From Mobula hypostoma (taxonomy: Eukaryota): DNA of 64,000 nucleotides. The DNA lies in contig NC_086097.1 of NCBI RefSeq assembly GCF_963921235.1, positions 133,860,001 to 133,924,000 of the forward strand. The letters are read 5' to 3'. Within the stretch, counting starts at the first letter, position 1, and every line of letters starts with the position of its first letter. Made by a program: the position numbers and the translations under genes. This document shows, piece after piece, positions 2,976 through 57,100 of the stretch. Below the pieces are notes generated by a model. That model made no database searches. It saw only the letters and a list, made by a program, of their open reading frames with translations, and was not told the DNA's origin.

Positions 2976-3744
2976 AAAAAGTGAAAAAGCTAGAATATTT
3001 ATTGTCAAAACTGTTCACTTGCCTTTCATGCTTTTGCAGCTTTTTTCAGGTTTAAGATGGAGGTGGTGAAGCACAGTGATGACTTGTTGGCAGCAAAAAT
3101 AGCCATTAACTACTTTATTATTCACATTTTTTCTCAAAAATGATCACTGCAATCAATAGCCTGTAACTTTCCTTTTACCACCCGTACGACCTGGCGTTTC
3201 TGCTGTGTGAACTGAGGCCACGAAGGTGCAGAATAGTTGCAGCATGGCACATTTGGCCATCACTGGAGTGGACTCAGAGGCAATTTGTAGCAGCAGAATC
3301 TGCAGCAGCAGAGCTGAGGTGACGGGGCCTGGGCCCAAGGCTATTTGGCCAATTTATGTGCCAGGCCAGATTGAAAATGTTGGGTATAGGATGAATCGAC
3401 CTGGCGGGGCCTAGGCCTAGGCCTGAGAGCGTATCGAAGCGACAAGGCCCAGGTCTGAGAATGAGGAATGACTCAAGGTTCCACCAATTTAAGCATTAAG
3501 CCAGATTGAAAAGGTCAGGTTGTCATGGCCAGAGGCGAGGGATGGGCCAGTGTTCAGCTCACTGATCCATGAGGTTTACTCATCTCTGCACTGAACTGAG
3601 GCTAAGACCTGCAACTAACCAGCTCTTGGATCGACTATGACTGGCTTTATGGATGTAGACTCACTTTTGTGGACTTCAGTTCTGAATGTTAATTGCTTAT
3701 TTTTATTGTTTTTGTTTTCCTGCACATTGGATGCTCTCTTGTAA

Positions 3745-5869: not shown

Positions 5870-7095
5870 ACGCACAATATTGAAAAAGGTAGCATTTCCA
5901 TCTGTCGCAAAGAAATGCTTCGAGAAATTGGTATTGAATAGAAATAGCTCCCATCTTTGCAAGCATCTGGATCCATTGACATTCACCTACTATCACAACA
6001 GGTCTACAGAAGATGCAGTCTTACTGTTCCTCCACTCTGCTTTGGAGCACCTCCACAAAAAAATATATACAAGGCTGCTGTTTTTCGGTTACTGCTCAGA
6101 AATTAATACCATGATCCTCTCTGTATTATTCACAGCTTTTAAACCTGGGCCTCTGTGCCTCCCTCTGCAATTAGATCTTCAGCTTCCTCATCGGGACACC
6201 ATAGTCAGTACAGATGAGTAACATCTCCTCCTCACTGACAATCAACACAGGCAAACTTCAAAGATGTCAGTGATGTGTGCTTAGTGCACTGCTACACTCA
6301 TAACCATGGCTAAGCATAGCTCAAATGCCAACTATAAATTCACAGATGACACCATTGTTACAAGAGTGAGATAGATTGGCTTATTGAATGGCGCCACAAC
6401 AACAACCTCTCACTCAACATAAGCATGACCAAGGACTTGATTGTGGACTTCAAGAAAAGGAACACACACCAGTTCTCATTGACGGTTCTATGCTGAGAAG
6501 TGTCAGCAGCTTCACATTCCAACATTTCAGAGGATCTACTCTGGACCCAACACATCACAAAGAAGGCATGCCAGTGACTCCACTTTGTCAGGAGTTGAGG
6601 AGAATCAGTGTGTCACTAAAAGCTTACAACTTCCTAAGGATGCATGGTGGTGATCATTCTGACTGGTGTATCACAGCCTGGTATGGAGGCTTCAATGCAC
6701 AGGATTGGAAGAGGCTGTAGACTGTTACAGGCTACCAGATCCGTCACAAGCACAACCCTCCCTACTACTGAGGATGTGTCTTTAAGAGGCAGATTTTTAA
6801 GAAGGTGGAATCCACCACAAACGACCCTCGCCATCCAGGCCATGCCCTCTTCTCATTACTGCCATCAGGTTGGAACCTGAAGACCTACACTCAATTATTC
6901 AGAAACAGCTTCTTCCCCTTCAGCATCAGATCTCTGAATGGTCCACGAACCCTTGAACACCAGTTCATTATTGGTTTATTTTGCGCTATTTACTTCCTTA
7001 TTTTTAGTAAAGTAAAAAATTCCAATTCCAATGCTATTCCAAAACAACAAATTTCATGTCAGAATACAGTAATAATAAATTTGATTCTGATGCTG
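5870..7095 (+). mobile_element. Degenerate Rex1/Babar-type LINE 3' fragment
   Basis: KCFEKLV..HLDPL..Y..NRSTEDA, CITAWYG and HPGHALFSLLPSG..FRNSFFP motifs; tail aataataaatttgattctga. Confidence 0.85.
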
Positions 7096-7310
7096 CGGTT
7101 AATCGACCTGAGACACTAACCCATCTCTCTCTATAGCTGTTACCTGCCCTCCTGAGTAATTGATTTCTGAAAGTGCTTGAGCAATTTAATTGGTGAGTTG
7201 AAAATGTTCATTTAACTGGAACAGTTATACAATCAAACAGCTTTCTAGTTACACACATCAAAGTTGCTAGTGAATGCAGCAGGCCAGGCAGCATCTCTAG
7301 GAAGAGGTAC

Positions 7311-7346
7311 AGTCGACGTTTCAGGCCAAGACCCTTCGTCAGGACT
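7311..7346 (-). ncRNA. Minimal type-I hammerhead ribozyme motif, array copy 1
   Basis: Minus strand reads AGUC CUGACGA AGG-gucuugg-CCU GAAA CGUC GACU: stem I AGUC/GACU, CUGANGA core, stem II, GAAA, palindromic ACGU stem III, GUC cleavage triplet. Confidence 0.85.
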
Positions 7347-7595
7347 AACTGAAGGAAGAGTTAGTAAGAGATTTGAAAGTCTACAGATGGGGAGCAGTGA
7401 GAGATAGTTTCACTGAACTCCCGTCGAAGAGAAGATTTAAACTTCTTCAGTGTAGGCATCACCAGAAGAGGCTTCGCAGTAGTGAATTTAAAAACGCAAA
7501 CAAGAGGAATTCTGCAGATGCTGGAAATTCAAGCAACACACATCAAAGTTGCTGGTGAATGCAGCAGGCCAAGCAGCATCTCTAGGAAGAGGTAC

Positions 7596-7631
7596 AGTCA
7601 ACGTTTCAGGCCGAGACCCTTCGTCAGGACT
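7596..7631 (-). ncRNA. Minimal type-I hammerhead motif, array copy 2 (GUU triplet)
   Basis: AGUC CUGACGA AGGGUCUCGGCCU GAAACGUU GACU. Confidence 0.78.
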
Positions 7632-7880
7632 AACTGAAGGAAGAGTTAGTAAGAGATTTGAAAGTCTACAGATGGGGAGCAGTGAGAGATAGTTTCACTG
7701 AACTCCCGTCGAAGAGAAGATTTAAACTTCTTCAGTGTAGGCATCACCAGAAGAGGCTTCGCAGTAGTGAATTTAAAAACGCAAACAAGAGGAATTCTGC
7801 AGATGCTGGAAATTCAAGCAACACACATCAAAGTTGCTGGTGAATGCAGCAGGCCAAGCAGCATCTCTAGGAAGAGGTAC

Positions 7881-7916
7881 AGTCAACGTTTCAGGCCGAG
7901 ACCCTTCGTCAGGACT
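7881..7916 (-). ncRNA. Minimal type-I hammerhead motif, array copy 3 (GUU triplet)
   Basis: Identical to copy 2 and 285 nt from it. Confidence 0.78.
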
Positions 7917-8531
7917 AACTGAAGGAAGAGTTAGTAAGAGATTTGAAAGTGATTTGAAAGCTTTCTAGTTCTCTGTTATCTATGGAGGTGCATAAACCAA
8001 AATGGCCACTCAGAAAAATGGGAAACAAATACATTTGACTGGTCAAATCAATTTGTTGATGCTTGGCCTGGGTATAAAGCAGTTCCAAAAGGAATCAATT
8101 GATTTGTTTGATTTTTGGGATGGGAACTTTCCCTGCTTGGCATAAAGCAGGTGGGTGGAAACATCTGTAAAATTAACAAAATGCATGCAATGTCTCCAAA
8201 ACACTACTCCAAATTAGCAAACTGATTCAGTTTAAGCAGTATTTGCAGTATAAACTGAATTTGCATTCAGTTCTCTGGTTTAGCTGAACAGCAACACCAG
8301 TATGGAACATTTGCAAATTACAAGTCCAAGTCAAAGTCGAGTCTATTGACATATGCACAAATACATGTAAGCACAAGTAACAGAGGTGCAATGAAAAACT
8401 TACTTGCAACAAGCAGCATCACAGGCCCATAGCATTGGAGAGGTGACAGGCACGTAACATTGTAAAAGTGCATAGAGTACGTTGGCTCAAGGTATTGGGG
8501 TAATTTATACCAACTGACTCTTTCTTTGTGT

Positions 8532-8785
8532 ACACACAGGAGTTTCTGCAGATGCAGGAAATCTTGCAGAACACACACAAAGTGCTGGTGGAACTCAACA
8601 TGTCAGGCAGCATCTATGTAAGAGAATAAACAGTTAATATTTTTGGCTGAAACCCGTCATCGGGATGCAGTCTTCAGGTCCTAATGAAGGATCTCAGTCC
8701 GAAATGTTGATTCTGACCGCCCCACCCCTACCACACACGCTGCCTGACTTGATGATTTCCTCTAGCATTTTGTGTGCATTTCTCT
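8532..8785. mobile_element. Degenerate Penelope terminal-repeat element in inverted-repeat (foldback) arrangement
   Basis: acacacaaagtgctggtggaactcaacatgtcaggcagc ... gctgcctgacttgatgatttcctctagcattttgtgtg; decayed hammerhead ggtcctaatgaagg..ccgaaatgttga near 8677-8712. Confidence 0.7.
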
Positions 8786-11202: not shown

Positions 11203-11915
11203 ACAAACAAGAGAAAATCTGCAGATGCTGGAAATTTGAGCAACACACACAAAAAGCTGAAGGAACTCAGCAGGCCAGGCAGCATCTATGGAAAAAAATA
11301 CAGTCGATGTTTCAGGCCGAAACCCACCCCCCCCCAACATTTCCCATCCCCTTGTCCCTCTCTCATGTTACCTCCTTGCCCACCCATCACATCCCTGTTG
11401 TGCTCCTCCCCCCACCCCACCCCCACTTACTACTTTCTTCCATGGCCCTCTGTCTCTTTCACCAATCAACTTCCTAGCTCTTTGCTTCATCCCTCCCCCT
11501 CCAAGTTTCACTTATCACCTGGCGTTTCTCTCTCCCCTCCCCCCACCTTTCAAATCTATTCCTCCAACACACATCAAAGTTGCTGGTGAATGCAGCAGGC
11601 CAGGGAGCATCTCTAAGAAGAAGTACAGTCGGCATTTCGGGCCGAGACCCTTCGTCAGGACTAGGGTCTCGGCCCGAAATGGCAACTGTACCTCTTCCTA
11701 GAGATGCTGCCTGGCCTGCTGCATTCACCAGCAACTTTGATGTGTGTTGCCTGAATTTCCAGCATCTGCAGAATTCCTCGTGTTTACGAACAAAATCTAT
11801 TCCTCAGCTTTTTTTTCTCCAGTCCTGCCGAAGGGTTTCGGCCCAAAACGTCAACTGTACTTTTTCCCACAGATGCTGCCTGGCCTGCTGAGTTCCTCCA
11901 GCATTTTGTGTGTAC
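11203..11915. mobile_element. Penelope terminal-repeat element (inverted arrangement) hosting a nested copy
   Basis: acaaacaagagaaaatctgcagatgctgg... arm, C-rich pLTR, mutated hammerhead agtcctgccgaagggtttcggcccaaaacgtcaact at 11821-11856, complementary arm ending near 11912. Confidence 0.8.
11565..11792. mobile_element. Nested foldback Penelope pLTR element with 13-bp TSD
   Basis: TSD aaatctattcctc at 11552-11564 and 11793-11805; inverted arms of ~90 bp around 11660. Confidence 0.88.
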
Positions 11916-20882: not shown

Positions 20883-23802
20883 CATAGAACCATAGAACCA
20901 TAGAAACTACAGCACAGAAACAGGCCCTTTGGCCCTTCTTGGCTGTGCCGAACCATTTTCTGCCTAGTCCCACTGACCTGCACATGGACCATATCCCTCC
21001 ATACACCTCCCATCCATGTATCTGTCCAATTTATTCTTAAATGTTAAAAAAAGAACCCGCATTTACCACCTTGCCTGGCAGCTCATTCCATACTCCCACC
21101 ACTCTCTGTGTGAAGAAGCTAATGTTCCCTTTAAACTTTTCCCCCCTCATCCTTAACCCATGTCCTCTGGTTTTTTTCTCCCCTTGCCTCAGTGGAAAAA
21201 GCCTGCTTGCATTCACTCTATTTATACCCATCATAATTTTATATACCTCTATCAAATCTCCCCTCATTCTTCTACGCTCCAGGGAATAAAGTCCTAACCT
21301 ATTCAACCTTTCTCTGTAACTGAGTTTCTCAAGTCCCGGCAACATCCTTGTAAACCTTCTCTGCACTCTTTCAACCTTATTTATATCCTTCCTGTAATTT
21401 GGTGACCAAAACTGAACACAATACTCCAGATTCGGCCTCACCAATGCCTTATACAACCTCACCATAACATTCCAGCTCTTATACTCAATACTTTGATTAA
21501 TAAAGGCCAATGTACCAAAAGCTCTCTTTACGACCCTATCTACCTGTGATGCCACTTTTAGGGAATTTTGTATTTGTATTCCCAGATCCCTCTGTTCCAC
21601 TGCACTCCTCAGTGCCTTACCATTAACCCTGTATGTTCTACCTTGGTTTGTCCTTCCAACGTGCAATACCTCACACTTGTCAGTATTAAACTCCATCTGC
21701 CATTTTTCAGCCCATTTTTCCAGCTGGTCCAAGTCCCTCTGCAGGCTCTGAAAACCTTCCTCACTGTCTACTACACCTCCAATCTTTGTATCATCAGCAA
21801 ACTTGCTGATCCAATTTACCACATTATCATCCAGATCATTGATATAGATGACAAATAACAATGGACCCAGCACTGATCCCTGTGGCACACCACTAGTCAC
21901 AGGCCTCCACTCAGAGAAGCAATTCTCTACCACCACTCTCTGGCTTCTTCCATCGAGCCAATGTCTAATCCAATTTACCACCTCTCCATGTATACCTAGC
22001 GACTGAATTTTCCTAACTAACCTCCCATGCGGGACCTTGTCAAAGGCCTTACTGAAGTCCATGTAGACAATATCCACTGCCTTCCCTTCATCCACTTTCC
22101 TGGTAACCTCCTCGAAAAACTCCAACAGATTGGTCAAACATGACCTACCACGCACAAAGCCATGTTGACTCTCCCTAATAAGTCCCTGTCTATCCAAATG
22201 CTCGTAGATTCTGTCTCTTAGTACTCCCTCCAATAACTTACCTACTACTGACGTTAAACTCAGCGGCCTATAATTTCCCGGATTACTTTTCGATCCTTTT
22301 TTAAACAACGGAACAACATGAGCCACTCTCCAATCCTCCGGCACTTCACCCGTAGACAGCGACATTTTAAATATTTCTGCCAGGGCCCCCGCAATTTCAA
22401 CACTAGTCTCCTTCAAGGTCCGAGGGAACACCCTGTCAGGCCCCGGGGATTTATCCACTTTAATTTTCCTCAAGACAGCAAGCACCTCCTCATTTTCAAT
22501 CTGTACAGTTTCCATGGTCTCACTACTTGATTCCCTCAATTCCATAGATTTCATGCCAGCTTCCTCAGTAAATACAGATGCAAAAAACCTATTTAAGATC
22601 TCCCCCATTTCCTTTGGTTCTGCACAAAGCCAACCACTCTGATCTTCAAGAGGACCAATTTTATCCCTTACAATCCTTTTGCTCTTAATATACTTGTAAA
22701 AGCTCTTTGGATTATCCTTCACTTTGACGGCCAAGGCAACCTCATGTCTTCTTTTAGCCCTCCTGATTTCTTTCTTAAGTATTTTCTTGCACTTCTTATA
22801 CTCCTCAAGCACCTGATTTACCCCCTGTTTCCTATACATTTCATACAACTCCCTCTTCTTCTTTATCAGAGTTGCAATATCGCTTGAGAACCAAGGTTCC
22901 TTATTCCTATTCAATTTGCCTTCAATCCTGACAGGAACATACAAACTCTGCACTCTCAAAATTTCCCCTTTGAAGGCTTCCCACCTACTAATCACATCTT
23001 TGCCAGAGAACAATCTGTCCCAATCTACGCTTTTTAGATCCTTTCTCATTTCTTCAAATTTGGCCTTCTTCCAGTTCAGAATCTCAACCTTAGGACCAGA
23101 TCTATCCTTGTCCATGATCAAATTGAAACTAATGGCGTTATGATCACTGGAACCAAAGTGCTCCCCTACACAGACATCCGACACTTGCCCTAATTCGTTT
23201 CCTAACAGGAGATCCAATATTGCATCCCCTCTAGTTGGTCCCTCTATATACTGATTTAGAAAACTTTCCTGAACACATTTTACAAACTCTAAACTATCTA
23301 GACCCCTAACAGTATGGGAGTCCCAATCAATGTATGGAAAATTAAAATCCCCTACCACCACAACTTTATGTTTCCTGCAGTTGTCTGCTATCTCTCCGCA
23401 GATTTGCTCTTCGAAGTCTCGTTGACTATTGGGTGGTCTGTAATACAATCCCACTAATGTGGCCATACCTTTCCTGTTTCTCAGCTCCACCCATAAGGAC
23501 TCAGTAGACAAGCCCTCTAATCTGTCCTGCCTGAGCACTGCTGTAATATTTTCCCTAACAAGCAATGCTACTCCACCACCTTTCATTCCTCTGCCTCGAT
23601 CACATCTGAAACATCGGAACCCTGGAATATTAAGCTGCCAGTCCTGCCCCTCCTGTAGCCAAGTTTCACTAATTGCTACAACATCATAATTCCACGTGTC
23701 AATCCACGCCCTCAAGTCATCCGCCTTCCCCGCAATACTCCTAGCATTGAAATATATACACCTCAGAAGATTTTTACCACCACTCACAACCTTTCTATCA
23801 GC
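20883..23802 (-). mobile_element. Young CR1 LINE, 5'-truncated, with (TTCTATGG)n tail and 7-bp TSD
   Basis: Tail ccatagaaccatagaaccatagaa at 20882-20905; ggaatac at 20876-20882 and 23803-23809. Confidence 0.96.
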
Positions 23803-23811
23803 GGAATACAT
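21037..23811 (-). CDS. CR1 ORF2p: APE endonuclease + reverse transcriptase, 924 aa, open except at the extreme C-terminus
   Basis: FNARSI, ISETW, GGGVAL, YYRPP, GDFN, SDHN; NYRPLSLTS, QHGF, DFSKAFD, GVPQGSVLGP, KFADDTK. Confidence 0.93.
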   Translation of the reverse strand: MYSADRKVVSGGKNLLRCIYFNARSIAGKADDLRAWIDTWNYDVVAISETWLQEGQDWQLNIPGFRCFRCDRGRGMKGGGVALLVRENITAVLRQDRLEGLSTESLWVELRNRKGMATLVGLYYRPPNSQRDFEEQICGEIADNCRKHKVVVVGDFNFPYIDWDSHTVRGLDSLEFVKCVQESFLNQYIEGPTRGDAILDLLLGNELGQVSDVCVGEHFGSSDHNAISFNLIMDKDRSGPKVEILNWKKAKFEEMRKDLKSVDWDRLFSGKDVISRWEAFKGEILRVQSLYVPVRIEGKLNRNKEPWFSSDIATLIKKKRELYEMYRKQGVNQVLEEYKKCKKILKKEIRRAKRRHEVALAVKVKDNPKSFYKYIKSKRIVRDKIGPLEDQSGWLCAEPKEMGEILNRFFASVFTEEAGMKSMELRESSSETMETVQIENEEVLAVLRKIKVDKSPGPDRVFPRTLKETSVEIAGALAEIFKMSLSTGEVPEDWRVAHVVPLFKKGSKSNPGNYRPLSLTSVVGKLLEGVLRDRIYEHLDRQGLIRESQHGFVRGRSCLTNLLEFFEEVTRKVDEGKAVDIVYMDFSKAFDKVPHGRLVRKIQSLGIHGEVVNWIRHWLDGRSQRVVVENCFSEWRPVTSGVPQGSVLGPLLFVIYINDLDDNVVNWISKFADDTKIGGVVDSEEGFQSLQRDLDQLEKWAEKWQMEFNTDKCEVLHVGRTNQGRTYRVNGKALRSAVEQRDLGIQIQNSLKVASQVDRVVKRAFGTLAFINQSIEYKSWNVMVRLYKALVRPNLEYCVQFWSPNYRKDINKVERVQRRFTRMLPGLEKLSYRERLNRLGLYSLERRRMRGDLIEVYKIMMGINRVNASRLFPLRQGEKKTRGHGLRMRGEKFKGNISFFTQRVVGVWNELPGKVVNAGSFFNI

Positions 23812-23822
23812 GGAATGAATAT

Positions 23823-23968
23823 AAACAAGAGAAAATCTGTGGATGCTGAGAATTCAAGCAACACACACAAAATGCAGGAGGAAATCAGTAGGTCAGGCAG
23901 CATCTATGATAAAGAGTACAGGTGACGTTTCGGGCAGGACCTCAACATTTTGTGTGTGAGTTGCTTGG
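23823..23968. mobile_element. Short foldback Penelope terminal-repeat relic
   Basis: aaacaagagaaaatctgtggatgctg..acacacacaaaatg ... cattttgtgtgtg. Confidence 0.65.
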
Positions 23969-37810: not shown

Positions 37811-37892
37811 CAGTGAAACTCCTCTCTCAGACTAACCCCTCTCAGTGTAACCCTCTCGCAGTGTAACTCCTCTTTCAGTGTAACCCTCTCTC
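37810..37892. repeat. Short ~17-bp tandem repeat (ctctcagtgtaaccct-like)
   Basis: Four to five degenerate copies immediately before the minisatellite. Confidence 0.7.
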
Positions 37893-38790
37893 ACAGACAT
37901 CAGGTTCCATGACTTACTGACTCACAGACATCAGTCCCTGACTTACTGACTCACAGACATCAGTCCCCTGATTTACTGACTGACAGATATCGGTCCCCTG
38001 ACTTACTGACTCACAGACATCAGTCCCCTGACTCACAGACATCAGTCCCTGACTTACTGACTCACAGATATCGGTCCCTGACTTACTGACTGACAGATAT
38101 TGGTCCCTGACTTACTGACTGACAGACATCAGTCCCCTGACTTACTGACTGACAGATATTGGTCCCTGACTTACTGACTCACAGACATCGGTCCCTGACT
38201 TACTGACTGACAGACATCAGTCCCTGACTTACTGACTCACAGATATCGGTCCCTGACTTACTGACTGACAGATATCGGTCCCTGACTTACTGACTGACAG
38301 ACATCAGTCCCCTGACTTACTGACTGACAGATATCGGTCCCTGACTTACTGACTCACCGACATCAGTCCCTGACTTACTGACTCACAGACATCATTCCCT
38401 GAGTTACTGACTCACAGATATCGGTCCCTGACCTACTGACTGACAGATATCGGTCCCCTGACTTACTGACTCACAGACATCGGTCCCTGACTTACTGACT
38501 GACAGATATCGGTCCCCTGACTTACTGACTTACAGACATCAGTCCCCTGACTTACTGACTCACAGACATCAGTCCCCTGACTTACTGACTGACAGACATC
38601 GGGTCCCCTGACTTACTGACTGACAGACATCGGGTCCCCTGACTTACTGACTCACAGATATCGGTCCCTGACTTACTGACTCACAAACATCGGTCCCTGA
38701 TTTACTGACTCAGAGACATCAGGTCCCCTGATTTGCTGACTGACAGACTTTGGGTCCCTGACTCACTGACATTGTGCCTCTGACTTCTGG
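37890..38790. repeat. Minisatellite, 29-31-bp unit CCTGACTTACTGACT(C/G)ACAGA(C/T)ATC(A/G)GTC(C), about 30 copies
   Basis: Read directly; there are no unique spacers between units. Confidence 0.95.
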
Positions 38791-42610: not shown

Positions 42611-42650
<40 letters not shown>

Positions 42651-42842
42651 CGGATCTCCCCCTCCCCCTCCCACTTTCAAATCTCTTACTAGCTCTTCTT
42701 TCAGTTAGTCCTGACGAAGGGTCTTGGCCTGAAACGTCGACTGTACCTCTTCCTAGAGATGCTGCCTGGCCTGCTGCGTTCACCAGCAACTTTTATGTGT
42801 GTTGCTTGAAATTCCAGCACCTGCAGATCTCCTCGTGTTTGC
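42651..42842 (+). mobile_element. Solo Penelope terminal repeat inserted in a TA tract, 12-bp TSD
   Basis: Same family as the 7251 array; atatatatattt at 42639-42650 and 42843-42854. Confidence 0.88.
42707..42742 (+). ncRNA. Minimal type-I hammerhead ribozyme motif (intact)
   Basis: agtc ctgacga agggtcttggcct gaaacgtc gact, identical to array copy 1. Confidence 0.85.
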
Positions 42843-42951
42843 ATATATATATTTATATATAAAACAATCAGTGTGCATGTGTGTATGCCTGCATGTGTAT
42901 GTTTGCACATGTGTGTTCATGTACATGTGTTCATCTGCATGTCTATATATT

Positions 42952-48555: not shown

Positions 48556-48678
48556 GCACACACAAAATGCTGGAGGTACTTGGTGGGCCAGGCAGCATCT
48601 ATGGAAAAGAGTACAGTCGACGTTTCAGGCCGTGTGTTGCTTGGATTTCCAGCACCTGCAAATTTTCTCTTGTTTGTG
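48556..48678. mobile_element. Short foldback Penelope terminal-repeat element in a Rex1 3' fragment, 13-bp TSD with one mismatch
   Basis: actaaggtagtgt at 48543-48555 and actgaggtagtgt at 48679-48691. Confidence 0.75.
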
Positions 48679-50686: not shown

Positions 50687-51589
50687 CGGTCTCTGGAGAC
50701 AAACTGTCCACTGACATCTTCTACAAGCCCACTGACTCTCATAACTACCTCGACTATACCTCTTCCTACCCCGCCACATGCAAAAATGCCATTCCCTATT
50801 CCCAGTTCCTCCATCTCCTCCGCATCTGCTCCCAGGATGAGGTTTTCCATTCCAGGACATCTCAAACGTCCTCCTTCTTTAAGGATCGTGGTTTCCCTTC
50901 TGCTGTCATCAATGATGCCCTCACCCACATCTCCTCCATTTCCCGCACTTCGGTTGTCACCCCATCCTCCTGCCACCACAACAGGGACAGAGTTCCTCTT
51001 GTCCTCACCTACCACCCCACCAGCCTCCGGATCCAGCACATTATCTTCCGCAACTTCCGCCACCTTCAACAGGACCCCACCACTAAGCACATCTTTCCCT
51101 CTCCACCCTTCTCCGCTTTCCGCAGGGATTGGTCCCTCCGCGACTCCCTGGTCCACACGTCCCTCCCCACGGATCTCCCACCCGGCACTTAAGCGTAAGT
51201 GCTACACCTGTCCCTACACCTCCTCTCTTGCCACCATTCAGGGCCCCAAACAGTCCTTCCAGGTGAGGCAACACTTCACTTGTGAGTCTGCTGGGATCAT
51301 CTATTGCATCCGGTGCTCCCAGTGCGGCCTCCTCTACATCGGTGAAACCCGATGCAGGTTGGGGGACCGCTTCGTCGAGCACCTCCGCTCTGTCTGCCAC
51401 AACAGACAGGATCTCCTAGTAGCCACCCACTTCAACTCTGCTTCCCGCTCCCATTCAGATATGTCCATACATGGCCTTCTCTACTGCCATGATGAGGCTA
51501 AACTCAGGTTGGAGCAGCAACATCTCATATACCGTCTAGGTAGTCTCCAGCCCCTTGGAATGAATATAGAATTCTCCAACATCCAGTAA
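50687..51589 (+). pseudogene. Truncated Penelope RT-thumb/GIY-YIG ORF, frameshifted near 51190
   Basis: ORF 50680..51192 continues in the C-terminal part of ORF 50318..51589. Confidence 0.9.
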
Positions 51590-51853
51590 TTCCCTCCCCC
51601 TCCCTTCCTTTATCCCTATGTCACTCTGCCCCCTCCCCCAGCTGCCTATCACCCGCCTCATGGTTCCACCTCCTTCTACTACCCATTGTGTTTTACCCTA
51701 TTCCTTCTTCACCTTTCCTGCCTATCACCTCCCTGCTTCCCCTCCCCCACCCCTTTATCTTTTCCTTTACTGGTTTTTCACCTAGAACCTACCAGCCTTC
51801 TCCTTCCCACCCTCCCCCCACCTTCTTTATAGGGCCTCTGCTCCTTCCCTCTA

Positions 51854-51891
51854 CAGTCCTGACGAAGGGTTCCGGCTCGAAACATTGACTG
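51854..51891 (+). ncRNA. Hammerhead motif in the Penelope terminal repeat (stem III palindrome decayed)
   Basis: cagtc ctgacga agggttccggctc gaaacatt gactg. Confidence 0.65.
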
Positions 51892-52819
51892 ATCATTTCC
51901 ACGGATGCTGACCGACCTGCTGAGTTCCTCCAGCGTGATGTGAGTGTTGCTTTGACCCCAGCATCTGCAGATTATTTTGTGTTTACTATGGGACTAGGAT
52001 ACTTAAATGGTTCAGCATGAACTAGATGGGTGAAGGATCTGTTTCTGTGCTGTACATTTCTTTGACTCTTTGACTATTAGATCTCCCAAAAATGTAGCAC
52101 CTTATTCTTATCCCAATTAAACTCCATCTGCCATTTACCTGCCCATATATGCAACTAGATCTATATCCTGCTATAACCATTGACATTCTTCTCCTCATCT
52201 CAGTCCTATTCTATTTGGCATTTCTATAGTGATCTCTGTTTTGTGCCATATATTGCTATTGAGAATGAGTGTTTTTGGGGGTGTGAGGTGAGATGGGGGG
52301 GGGAGATGTATCACCTTTAATCCAAGTAGGATCCAGAATAACACAATGGCTTGTGTTTAAAAAAAACAGAGCTCATTTCACGGAGGGGGAAATCATACAC
52401 ACAAGAATGGAACATGAGTCAAACTCTCCATGATTCAGTGGGGTTTGACAGAATCCAAATATTACAGATGAAACCACTCTGTAATATGCAGGAAATAAGA
52501 TAAAACAAACACAAGCAAACCACTGTGTGCTACTCCCAGAATGCTCATTTTCTGTCTTCATGTTATGAATGATGATTCAAAGCAGTCACAAATTCATGTT
52601 TTCAAATGCTGTTGTATACTCCAGGGCTTTCATTATATTTTCCACTATCTGGGGGAGTTTCTAAACCAGGAAAATATTTGTTTGATATGCAACTTGACCT
52701 CTTATTGCCCAGCATCCTGCCTCAGTTTTTAACCACTGCATCATGGTTCTTTATTGCAAAACCAGTGCTCTGTTAAGGATGTCTGGAATGCCTGCTATGG
52801 TCTGTCATATAATATCTGC

Positions 52820-54135: not shown

Positions 54136-57100
54136 ATCATTTGAGATATGATGTCTCAACACTCTAAAAGACCTGTCCCTTTTTTAATCATTAATAATTT
54201 ATTTCCAATGAAGTCTAACTTTTTACTGTGCTGTAGATAGTAACTGAAAAGTGCACATCAAGCTAATTTAGCAGAAGAACTGTTACCAGCTTCAAAAAAT
54301 GTGGAACTCTGAGTAGAATCAAAATAAGACTCATTCTGCTTCTAAAGAGTCTAGATCCTATATTACTTTATAACAGTTTTTAAGCTCAATGATGCAGTAT
54401 TAAAAGAGGGCAGTTTATCATTCATAACACAGTTTTAGATAAATATTTTTCAAGAACAAGGTCGAAATATTACCGTATCTCTCAAAGAGTTACTTATGAC
54501 CCTGGAGTAACCACGCAGATGGGAAGATGGGATGCAAATGCTGCCTCTCCTGAACAGTTGCTAAGACTCTGAATGAGAAGAGGTATGTTTTTTTTTCTGA
54601 CTCCAGTTGATCATTACTTCACAGCTTTTAATTCAGCCCATCCAAGATGGAACTAATTGGGGAGAATTCTGCAATTCTGTAGTAAAAAGCTTGATTCCCA
54701 ATACTAGCAACCAGCCTTCGATTAAAACAAAATAAACCCCTTTAACCCTTGTAGAAATACCGTCCATTAATTATAAAGCATCCATTATTTTGTTCTGTTT
54801 TACACATAGATGATTCTTTCATATTAATGCAGTGGCAGGATACTTAAGAACAAATTTGCTCAAATAACAACCATATGTAGACAGGAAGGCATTATAATTC
54901 AGATTTTACAGCGCATTCTTTTCTACAATTTGTTTTATTATTTGCCTTATTTTTCTTTTTCACTTTTCTTTATTCTGCTCACTTTAAGTATAAATGAAAA
55001 TAGACATAGGTAAAATTGGCCTGACAGAAGGCATTGTGGAACTGATGCAGAACTGCACAGCATTCTGAGCAGAATTTCTCAAGCACTCTTTTTTTTTGGC
55101 AAATTCAATTCCTAACAAGAGCTGTTGAGCCTCGTGGTTTTACGTGTGGTTGATGTGTGGATCATGTCACCTCTTTGCAAATCACCGTTCCAGCACAAGG
55201 CTACAGAGACCGAGGTCTGCTGTTGCTCTGGATTTAAACCGAGGTTTAAAGTGCCAGCCATGCACTGCTGATTAAATTCAACAGATTGAGGGGAGGTTCG
55301 ACTTCCACCTCAATTCAGCCTTGCAATGCTGCGTGTGACGCTGTCTATTAAACACCCCATTGTGCAAGAACATAAGGACTGAAGGAACATCGAGTAATAG
55401 ACACAGAAAAATGCATCACAGAAACAGGCCTTTCAGCCCAAATCGTCTATTATCTACCATGATTCCCATCTAAGCTCTTCTTATCTGCCTGCATTTCACC
55501 CATATCCGTCTAAATCTCTAAACCTTCCCTATCCACATACAAGTCCAAGCGCCTTTTGGCAAGTTCATTCCATATATCTGTGTGAAGAAATTGTGCCTCT
55601 GGTCCCTTTTAAATCTTTCCCCTCTCACCTTAAGCCTATGCCTTCTCTATTTACTGGGAAAAAGACTGTGCATTCATGATATTGATGCCCCCTAAACTCC
55701 TCCATACGGTCAAACATGGAGAACAGGCCAAGGCAATTCAAACCCTCAAACCTATTCTGTCACTTATACTATGGCCAACTTGCATCTTTACCCAATCCAT
55801 CTGTATTGGTTATGCTATCCCCAGTATCTTTCCCTAATGAAAACCATTAACCATTTAACTTCAGTTATGAAGTTTCCAAAAACCCCATAAAACATTTTAA
55901 GAGGAGGAAGTTCCAGATTTTCATTCCCCTCTGTGTGACCCATCATTGCCAAACAGCCAGGTTCTGATTTTAAAATAATGCCCCTGTGACCTGCGCTCCT
56001 CTCTTCCCACCAAATGTCCCATTTAACGCAGCTTGTGGGGCCTCAGGATTAACCCTTTAACCCTGGAATCTTTGAAGTGGTTCGATGCTGCTCTCCCGCC
56101 AAGGTGTACATCTTGGAGACACAAGAGACTGCAGGTTCTGGAGTCTGCAGCAACATACAAGATGCTGGATGAACTCAAAGGGTCAGCCAGCATTTATGGA
56201 AGAAAATGTACAGTCAATGTTTTGGGTCAAGACCCTTCATCTGGACTGAAAGACAGACAGTGCACCCTATTGTGTTTGGTTGATGCTTTACATAGATGTA
56301 GATACATTTCCAATCATCTATTCCAAACACCACTAACCTTTGGTAACATTTAGTTCTAACCAATCCATTTATCAGCCTGTGCCTCCTCAATCCCTAGTTT
56401 CACTGGAAGAAATCTCAGTGAAGTCATAAGCTTTTGACTGAATTAAGGAGTACACTCCCAGTTGGTGAGTACATTTGTTTCTGTGACAGATATAAACAAA
56501 AGTCACAAACTCATCACCACTGAAATGCCATTCTATTTGTCAGCCATACCAGTGATCATATCTGGAAAGCATTTGCCAGCGATTACACTAAAAGTCTATG
56601 TTTGATGTTGATGTTTCTACGTATTCACAATGGGCAAAGTTGTCAAGGGAAACGTCTTTTCTCCCAAAAGCTTTCATCAAATTCAAAACACAACAGGAAG
56701 CCAGGCGTTCAATAAGGAACATGTCCATTTTCGTAGTTCAAAAAAAAAGATGTGTTTGAAGTGGATTGAAAAGGAAACTGAATAAATGCCCTAGGGAGAA
56801 AAGAAGAGAAAGATAAGATGATGGGGGTGAGATGGAGAGAGGTGGGAAGAAGCTCATTTTGGCTGAGTAGTCAGTTTCACTGCTGCAAGTTCTAATAACT
56901 AACTGCTTAATAGATGCTCTGTTGAACCTTGATTATTGACTGCACAAAGGGCAAGAATCCACATAGGTCCATGTTCCCAAAATTGTCAGTGACCCTGTAG
57001 CCACAGTCCTCCAAGGTAGGGAATCCCAAAGATTCAGCAACCTTTTCAGAGAGCAAGCACACTTATCTCAATGCTAAACGGCCACTGCTTATTCTGCCAA

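Follow-up and report, generated by a model that had tools for sequence, protein, structure and literature searches.

The 64,000-nt stretch of Mobula hypostoma DNA analyzed here (the window) contains a short tandem array with one hammerhead ribozyme in each unit. The locus raises the question of whether such an array spreads as a ribozyme-processed, non-autonomous element, as a first-pass annotation had proposed, or whether it was left behind by a retrotransposon of a known kind. Below, the array is described, its unit is traced to a parent element, the unit's deletion junction is compared with those of related copies, and the possible origins are weighed.

Layout of the array and its hammerheads

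The array (7251-7950) was detected by TRF with a period of 285, 2.5 copies, and 99% matches. It is enclosed by a 12-nt direct repeat, the TSD, so that the earlier description of an approximately 2.5-mer within a 12-bp direct repeat was confirmed. The right TSD copy is separated from the array by 8 bases, a short duplicate of the element's end (Table 1). As had also been reported, 7666-7950 is letter-identical to 7381-7665 (0/285 differences), and the first arm, A1, departs from the other arms at four of 130 positions (7269, 7287, 7315, and 7328). The length of the TSD is typical of the family: 39 of 57 closed related loci gave a repeat of at least 8 nt, and 27 of these 39 were 12-14 nt long, with the reservation that short calls may be chance.

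Table 1. Coordinates of the array and its parts within the window.
Feature	Position	Strand	Basis or remark
TSD, left copy, 12 nt	7239..7250	.	direct repeat
Arm A1: PLE 3' UTR end, hammerhead, and pLTR	7251..7380	-	7251 = element 3' end, 64 nt past cut
Minimal type-I hammerhead 1, GUC, predicted cut after 7315	7311..7346	-	sequence
Deletion junction 1: one untemplated base, ORF codon 26 to 3' UTR ~65 nt before cut site	7381	-	junction search
First 26 codons of PLE ORF, ATG at 7459	7382..7459	-	frame stop 6 codons beyond junction
PLE 'tail' extension and 5' UTR	7460..7535	-	tail as in PMC8557442 and PMC11167929 (both in part)
Arm A2: pLTR with hammerhead 2 (7596-7631, GUU)	7536..7665	-	
Unit 3: junction 2 (7666), ORF start (ATG 7744), 5' UTR, arm A3, hammerhead 3 (7881-7916, GUU)	7666..7950	-	
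8-nt duplicate of element's 5' end, between array and TSD	7951..7958	-	
TSD, right copy	7959..7970	.	direct repeat

Three CUGACGA cores are present on the minus strand, starting at 7342, 7627, and 7912. The three minus-strand cores with 285-nt spacing that had been claimed are thus real; the positions given for them (7311, 7596, and 7881) do mark the hammerheads, but they are the ends of stem I and not the starts of the cores. The predicted cut base, N17, is 7315 in the first hammerhead (GUC), 7600 in the second (GUU), and 7885 in the third (GUU). All three have the CUGANGA and GAAA boxes, NUH, a 4-bp stem I, and a palindromic ACGU stem III. Position 11.1 is U in all three, which places G.U at the base of stem II instead of the G10.1-C11.1 pair. 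Across family copies, this position is U in 87 of 108 and C in 20 of 108. The GUU triplet of units 2 and 3 is a CpG-decay state found in 7 of 108 family copies. A GUU triplet cleaves less well than GUC.

These hammerheads are non-canonical, with a minimal motif that has no stem III and none of the loop 1-loop 2 contacts of a canonical hammerhead. An Rfam scan of 6800-8500 at E ≤ 10, a check that the first-pass annotation had suggested, gave no match to a hammerhead model, which is expected because the minimal motif has no stem III. Four weak Rfam matches in the same interval (PrrB_RsmZ, SCARNA14) were below the gathering score and were taken as chance. The 61-nt hammerhead regions folded at -12.2 and -11.8 kcal/mol into predicted structures that are not hammerhead-shaped and, with z-scores of 0.66 and 0.87, are no better than those of shuffled sequences; these values apply to the folding of a single RNA, and a dimer fold lies outside the model. 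In a 700-nt RNA fold, likewise of a single RNA, stems I and II had a probability of at most 0.01. In the available part of PMC4209133, minimal hammerheads show weak cleavage in vitro, even as dimers. Genome-wide, the hammerhead core has 57,460 exact-pattern matches and the reversed control has 0. The array is non-random as a repeat, yet the hammerhead itself is not rare in this genome.

Origin of the 285-nt unit

Each unit consists of the hammerhead-bearing pLTR, the 5' UTR, and the first 26 codons of a PLE of probable Neptune type, and approximately 3.23 kb of the 3,514-nt parent is gone. As the parent reference we used L096, a natural full-length copy among six long copies retrieved, in which a 1016-aa ORF is open and the hammerheads lie 3,514 nt apart. 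Numbered from the hammerhead cut of this copy, the unit is made of 3449-3514 followed by 1-216, and a single untemplated base stands at the deletion joint. The L096 ORF matched Pfam RVT_1 (E = 2.6e-5) and, at its C terminus, GIY-YIG (E = 0.001), both with scores under the curated cut-offs. Judged from its sequence, the parent is an EN+ PLE whose single ORF encodes RT and, C-terminally, GIY-YIG. Structural features of EN+ PLEs were also found: pLTRs from partial tandems, inverted 5'-truncated arms, and a 30-40-nt tail.

By eye, the L096 translation has a C-X4-C-X2-C linker, a CxxC between GIY and YIG, and CCHH cysteines. Neptune elements are recognized by a CX2-5CxxC linker between RT and EN together with a CCHH motif (PMC8557442, in part). 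The linker and the CCHH motif suggest that the parent is of the Neptune type, with the qualification that the Nematis linker is similar. The array unit is wholly built from an element of this kind. It has in common with EN+ Neptune-type PLEs, as far as they are described in the available parts of PMC4209133 and PMC8557442, the pLTR, the minimal type-I hammerhead with an unpaired base before stem II and a palindromic stem III, the 30-40-nt tail, the tandem and inverted 5'-truncated arms, and a parent with RT and C-terminal GIY-YIG. In contrast to those elements, approximately 92% of the parent unit is absent from the array copy, which codes for nothing and whose position 11.1 is U and not the usual C.

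The 3' ends of family copies form two clusters, at 60-75 nt (46/110) and at 99-111 nt (40/110) past the cut, and the array's end, at 64, falls in the first. These clusters match what is described for PAc, a Poseidon element of Anolis, in which two internal RT start sites approximately 35-40 nt apart define the tail (PMC11167929, in part). With this PLE composition and a family-typical TSD, the first-pass reading of the locus as a retrotransposed insertion with PLE-type minimal hammerheads, sense on the minus strand, was upheld.

The array's junction pattern has 2 matches genome-wide, both inside the array, whether searched exactly or with 1 mismatch. Since the junction occurs at this locus only, the 285-nt unit is not a spreading family. 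The spacer between the hammerheads is the ORF start of an autonomous PLE, for which a motif has 836 matches genome-wide, and 0 of 86 sampled copies start within 2 nt of the hammerhead cut. The first-pass annotation had proposed a propagating, ribozyme-processed, non-autonomous element and had named the genome-wide junction search beforehand as a refuting test; on these results, the proposal is not supported.

A DNA search with the unit, in which 40 of 3,110 candidates were scored, found look-alikes of up to 93% identity with junctions unlike the array's and mostly unlike one another. Three pairs of other gutted copies have a common junction. In L005 and L006 (C50:8.15 and 7.32 Mb, 0.84 Mb apart), it has 3 matches genome-wide, all in these two loci. 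In L045 and L047 (C1:36.21 and 37.28 Mb, 1.07 Mb apart), the inversion point is common as well, and a third pair is formed by L053 and L054 (C1:47.22 and 47.29 Mb, 0.07 Mb apart). Within each pair, private variants are common to both copies and the flanks are not, and the two copies lie within approximately 1 Mb on one contig. Given the common junctions and private variants in different flanks, these gutted copies seem to result from local second-round copying or from one template used twice, so some of the minis seem to have been re-copied locally.

Other repeats surround the array. An older inverted pair of PLE ends, approximately 80% identical and with decayed hammerheads, lies 600 nt away (8536-8776). 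Further PLE fragments were found at 11204-11903, 23823-23935, 42647-42850, 48586-48676, 50689-51971, and 56129-56247; among them, 50689-51584 holds part of a related 3' ORF (77%) with GIY-YIG. An open 938-aa frame on the minus strand (21037-23853) resembles, by eye, the ORF2 of an APE-RT LINE, and a PLE fragment overlaps its start. A 29-nt minisatellite of 30 copies with a higher-order period occupies 37890-38770. All ORFs of at least 150 aa in the window are repeat-derived as far as they are legible.

Deletion junctions across the family

To describe the junctions, Y denotes the deletion point in the ORF start and X the later parent point joined to it. The first sample comprised 90 of 100 listed places among the 836 ORF-start matches, which are 88 loci on contigs C1 and C2 only. 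The array's two matches, three loci from the unit search, one match inside a retrieved stretch, and the last four were left out. A Y-to-X deletion was found in 40 of the 88 loci, with 38 different Y/X pairs, and the unit was shorter than 500 nt in 27 of the 40. Scaled to 836 matches, this amounts to approximately 250 short-unit copies, extrapolated from contigs C1 and C2 only.

Y was located 210-320 nt past the ribozyme cut in 30 of the 40 deleted loci of this sample. Because the motif used for it forces Y above 209, a second sample was drawn on a motif at 109-133 (742 matches), with Y allowed from 134; its 30 matches are 29 loci, many of them common to the first sample. By hand count, Y lay at 210-320 in 15 of its 20 deleted loci, below 210 in 4, and above this range in 1. 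For a motif at 349-373 there are 733 matches; detection differs between motifs, so these totals do not give a ratio. For 28 of 38, the binomial tail of the Y clustering is approximately 5e-33.

The outer ends of the arms were compared with X in 60 loci, composed of 37 unbiased loci, 22 from the unit DNA search, and the array. Duplicate views of one locus, L006, L026, L047, and L054 (junction common to a kept locus), and L137 (X below 2000) were omitted. The outer 5' end of the main arm was within 8 nt of X, a window chosen after seeing the data and applied to BLAST ends that wobble by a few bases, in 17 of the 60 loci and in 17 of the 31 whose arm reaches back past the cut. The permutation mean for the 31 was 3.8, and 0 of 20,000 shuffles reached 17. 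The coincidence was found in 8 of 19 loci of the unbiased subset. In the array, the outer end of unit 3 (7950) is exactly X in parent numbering. In 10 of 21 cases, the start of the inverted arm was no more than 8 nt from X. Thirteen of the 31 arms stop short of X, and in L136 and L118 the upstream arm extends far beyond it, so jumps also occur on long templates.

An identical junction was found in both inverted arms of L045, L119, L155, L189, and L193. Exchange between direct repeats was ruled out as the source because one junction stands in both inverted arms. The cleanly resolved junctions are mostly blunt or have 1-2 nt in common; about half of all junctions are blurred at the base level by nearby mutations. 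Homology-driven deletion was rejected as a general cause, as most clean junctions have only 0-2 nt in common. Splicing had been considered for the pyrimidine run and AG before the junction and was rejected, since no template accounts for the G and the positions of Y and X change from one locus to another. In the literature searched on internally deleted or template-switching PLEs and pLTR circles, no description of the junction pattern was found, which is weak evidence of novelty; the family may be listed in the supplementary tables of Li et al. 2026 for the one chondrichthyan covered there.

Three further observations were made on individual copies. Two separate insertions, L070 and L091, have the same inversion joint (parent ~866/2691), a possible hot spot for priming or template switching. 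In many short copies and junctions, L063-L092 and others, the end falls at approximately 3483, where hammerhead stem I has its 5' edge, and palindromic inverted pairs are frequent among them; folding of the ribozyme may mark a protected template 5' end or stall the RT there. The 5' flank of L005 (1102-1131) contains a repeated 6-mer from the hammerhead loop, resembling reiterative, telomerase-style addition by the RT.

Formation of the array and its meaning

Units 2 and 3 have four rare variants in common and no private change in 285 nt, and two rare changes within 128 nt are private to A1. The probability of finding all four differences in the comparison with A1 is approximately 0.01, or approximately 0.03 if one of them is a subfamily state. 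One such site, 7287, is a common subfamily state (132 vs 47). Co-born arms bear private changes in most other multi-arm loci; against a later duplication stands L028, which has the same shared-variant pattern across three units. From these variants, it is likely that the third arm was added later by DNA duplication, and the earlier caveat that unit 3 is a later copy within an A-B-A insertion is probably right.

In a second species, contigs run from each flank into the element, and the flanks differ at 6 listed places in approximately 740 nt; the overlap with the element is under 31 nt, which is less than the bridging threshold and makes this a weak bridge. The insertion is likely, on this comparison, to be older than the split from the second species, yet young. 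With a young insertion, units 2 and 3 could also have been identical from birth. Four Logan contig sets were swamped by family copies, and 0 contigs span the array. No RNA run was among the sequencing runs recorded as containing array sequence.

We consider it probable that the unit is the hammerhead end of a PLE plus 26 codons, that it lost approximately 3.2 kb when the RT ran off its template and jumped during one insertion, and that the third arm is a later DNA duplication. The parent is the EN+ PLE with the 1016-aa RT/GIY-YIG ORF described above. Its protein would have made a cut in the target, staggered by 12 nt, with priming at an internal site 64 nt past an uncleaved hammerhead, as the 3'-end clusters and the available part of PMC11167929 suggest. 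Arm A1 would then have been copied back to X, 65 nt before the cut site, as the end of the template. One base would have been added before a jump to Y at codon 26, which was probably the RNA's 3' end, and a second round of copying to the same X would have given A-B-A. Alternatively, a host ligase could have joined X to Y in a short RNA; if copying halted at that joint, the DNA would look identical, and DNA traces cannot tell linear-RNA jumping from a ligated circle. Finally, the last 52 bases of the arms, which are identical, would later have allowed unequal exchange or slippage to extend the array to A-B-A-B-A. Hammerhead cleavage is not needed to explain the array, which is most likely an inert fossil.

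The outer ends at the junction, and the junctions that recur in tandem and inverted arms, point to run-off-and-jump copying of a short RNA and not to a ribozyme-cut circle. In vitro, PAc primes internally, on both target strands, with uncleaved RNA as the template; it requires the first 172 nt of its ORF, and hammerhead cleavage is dispensable (PMC11167929, in part). By analogy across clades, these requirements would fit a short protein-protected RNA that ends just inside the ORF. Unlike the present element, PAc belongs to a different clade, and the available part of that paper describes neither a jump from the template 5' end to the ORF start nor deleted multimers. We tentatively extend the run-off-and-jump reading to the family, which is an open bet rather than a favored conclusion: the PLE RT would make retrozyme-like multimers de novo at one insertion, from a short protein-protected RNA that reaches from just before the hammerhead to approximately 110-150 nt into the ORF, by run-off at the 5' end and a jump to the 3' end, repeated and on both strands. 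The genome would then hold a few hundred locus-unique mini-arrays, some re-copied nearby, with the hammerhead as a passenger.

It is also conceivable, but unlikely, that the whole 2.5-mer was made at insertion, by two jumps or by the rolling copying of an X..Y circle formed by ligation, and that A1 came from another template molecule or pLTR. Some multimers do combine a single junction with private changes in each unit (L009, L033, L116, and L135), the A1/A2 difference at 7287 is a subfamily state, and the insertion is young. However, units 2 and 3 have rare CpG-decay changes in common and none of their own, while A1 has acquired two over less than half that length.

A true non-LTR retrozyme, in which dimeric hammerheads cut a multimer into a 285-nt circle that is copied by the PLE RT and spreads as a family, is very unlikely. 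The array looks the part. It has three intact cores, one per unit, with the palindromic stem III, and it passes the operational filter of two consecutive units (Li et al. 2026, 10.64898/2026.07.22.740005, in part); the pairs L005/L006, L045/L047, and L053/L054 suggest second-round copying of minis elsewhere. Like metazoan non-LTR retrozymes, it consists of head-to-tail units of a few hundred bases with one type-I hammerhead each (PMC7229834 and Li et al. 2026, both in part), has a TSD of more than 4 nt, and is PLE-derived (Li et al. 2026, in part). Unlike them, as far as those sources describe them, it has a minimal hammerhead, a locus-unique unit, and an included ORF start, and it is known from DNA alone; classical retrozymes bear canonical hammerheads (PMC7229834, in part). 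The junction's restriction to this locus and the decayed GUU triplet of units 2 and 3 speak against a spreading family, and the accumulation of 5' ends at the deletion junction is not accounted for by a circle joined at the hammerhead. Minimal hammerheads cleave poorly in vitro (PMC4209133, in part), and 8 of 9 Xenopus dimers tested did not cleave.

Least credible of all is that a full-length PLE later lost 3.2 kb by DNA repair or that an assembly error produced the third unit. The letter-for-letter identity of units 2 and 3 fits the latter, and no Logan contig spans the array, but such an error would account for the third arm only and not for the deletion. Random deletion at a later time would neither gather Y in one interval nor place the same junction in inverted arms or the outer end at X.

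The array locus itself is an unremarkable by-product of a retrotransposon type already known; what merits following is the junction pattern across the family. PLE-derived retrozyme arrays have already been published, among them arrays in one chondrichthyan with a mean consensus of 363 bp, and local DNA amplification of the terminal repeat after insertion has been suggested for them (Li et al. 2026, in part). Because inverted arms have common junctions and outer ends match junctions, our observations suggest that reverse transcription, too, can give rise to multimers. They also carry a warning, in that motif-based retrozyme counts include locus-unique PLE debris. The pattern bears on two open questions, namely the origin of the tandem and inverted ends of PLEs and how non-LTR retrozymes arise from PLEs. 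If the de novo reading is true, the mini-arrays would be non-LTR retrozymes caught at birth.
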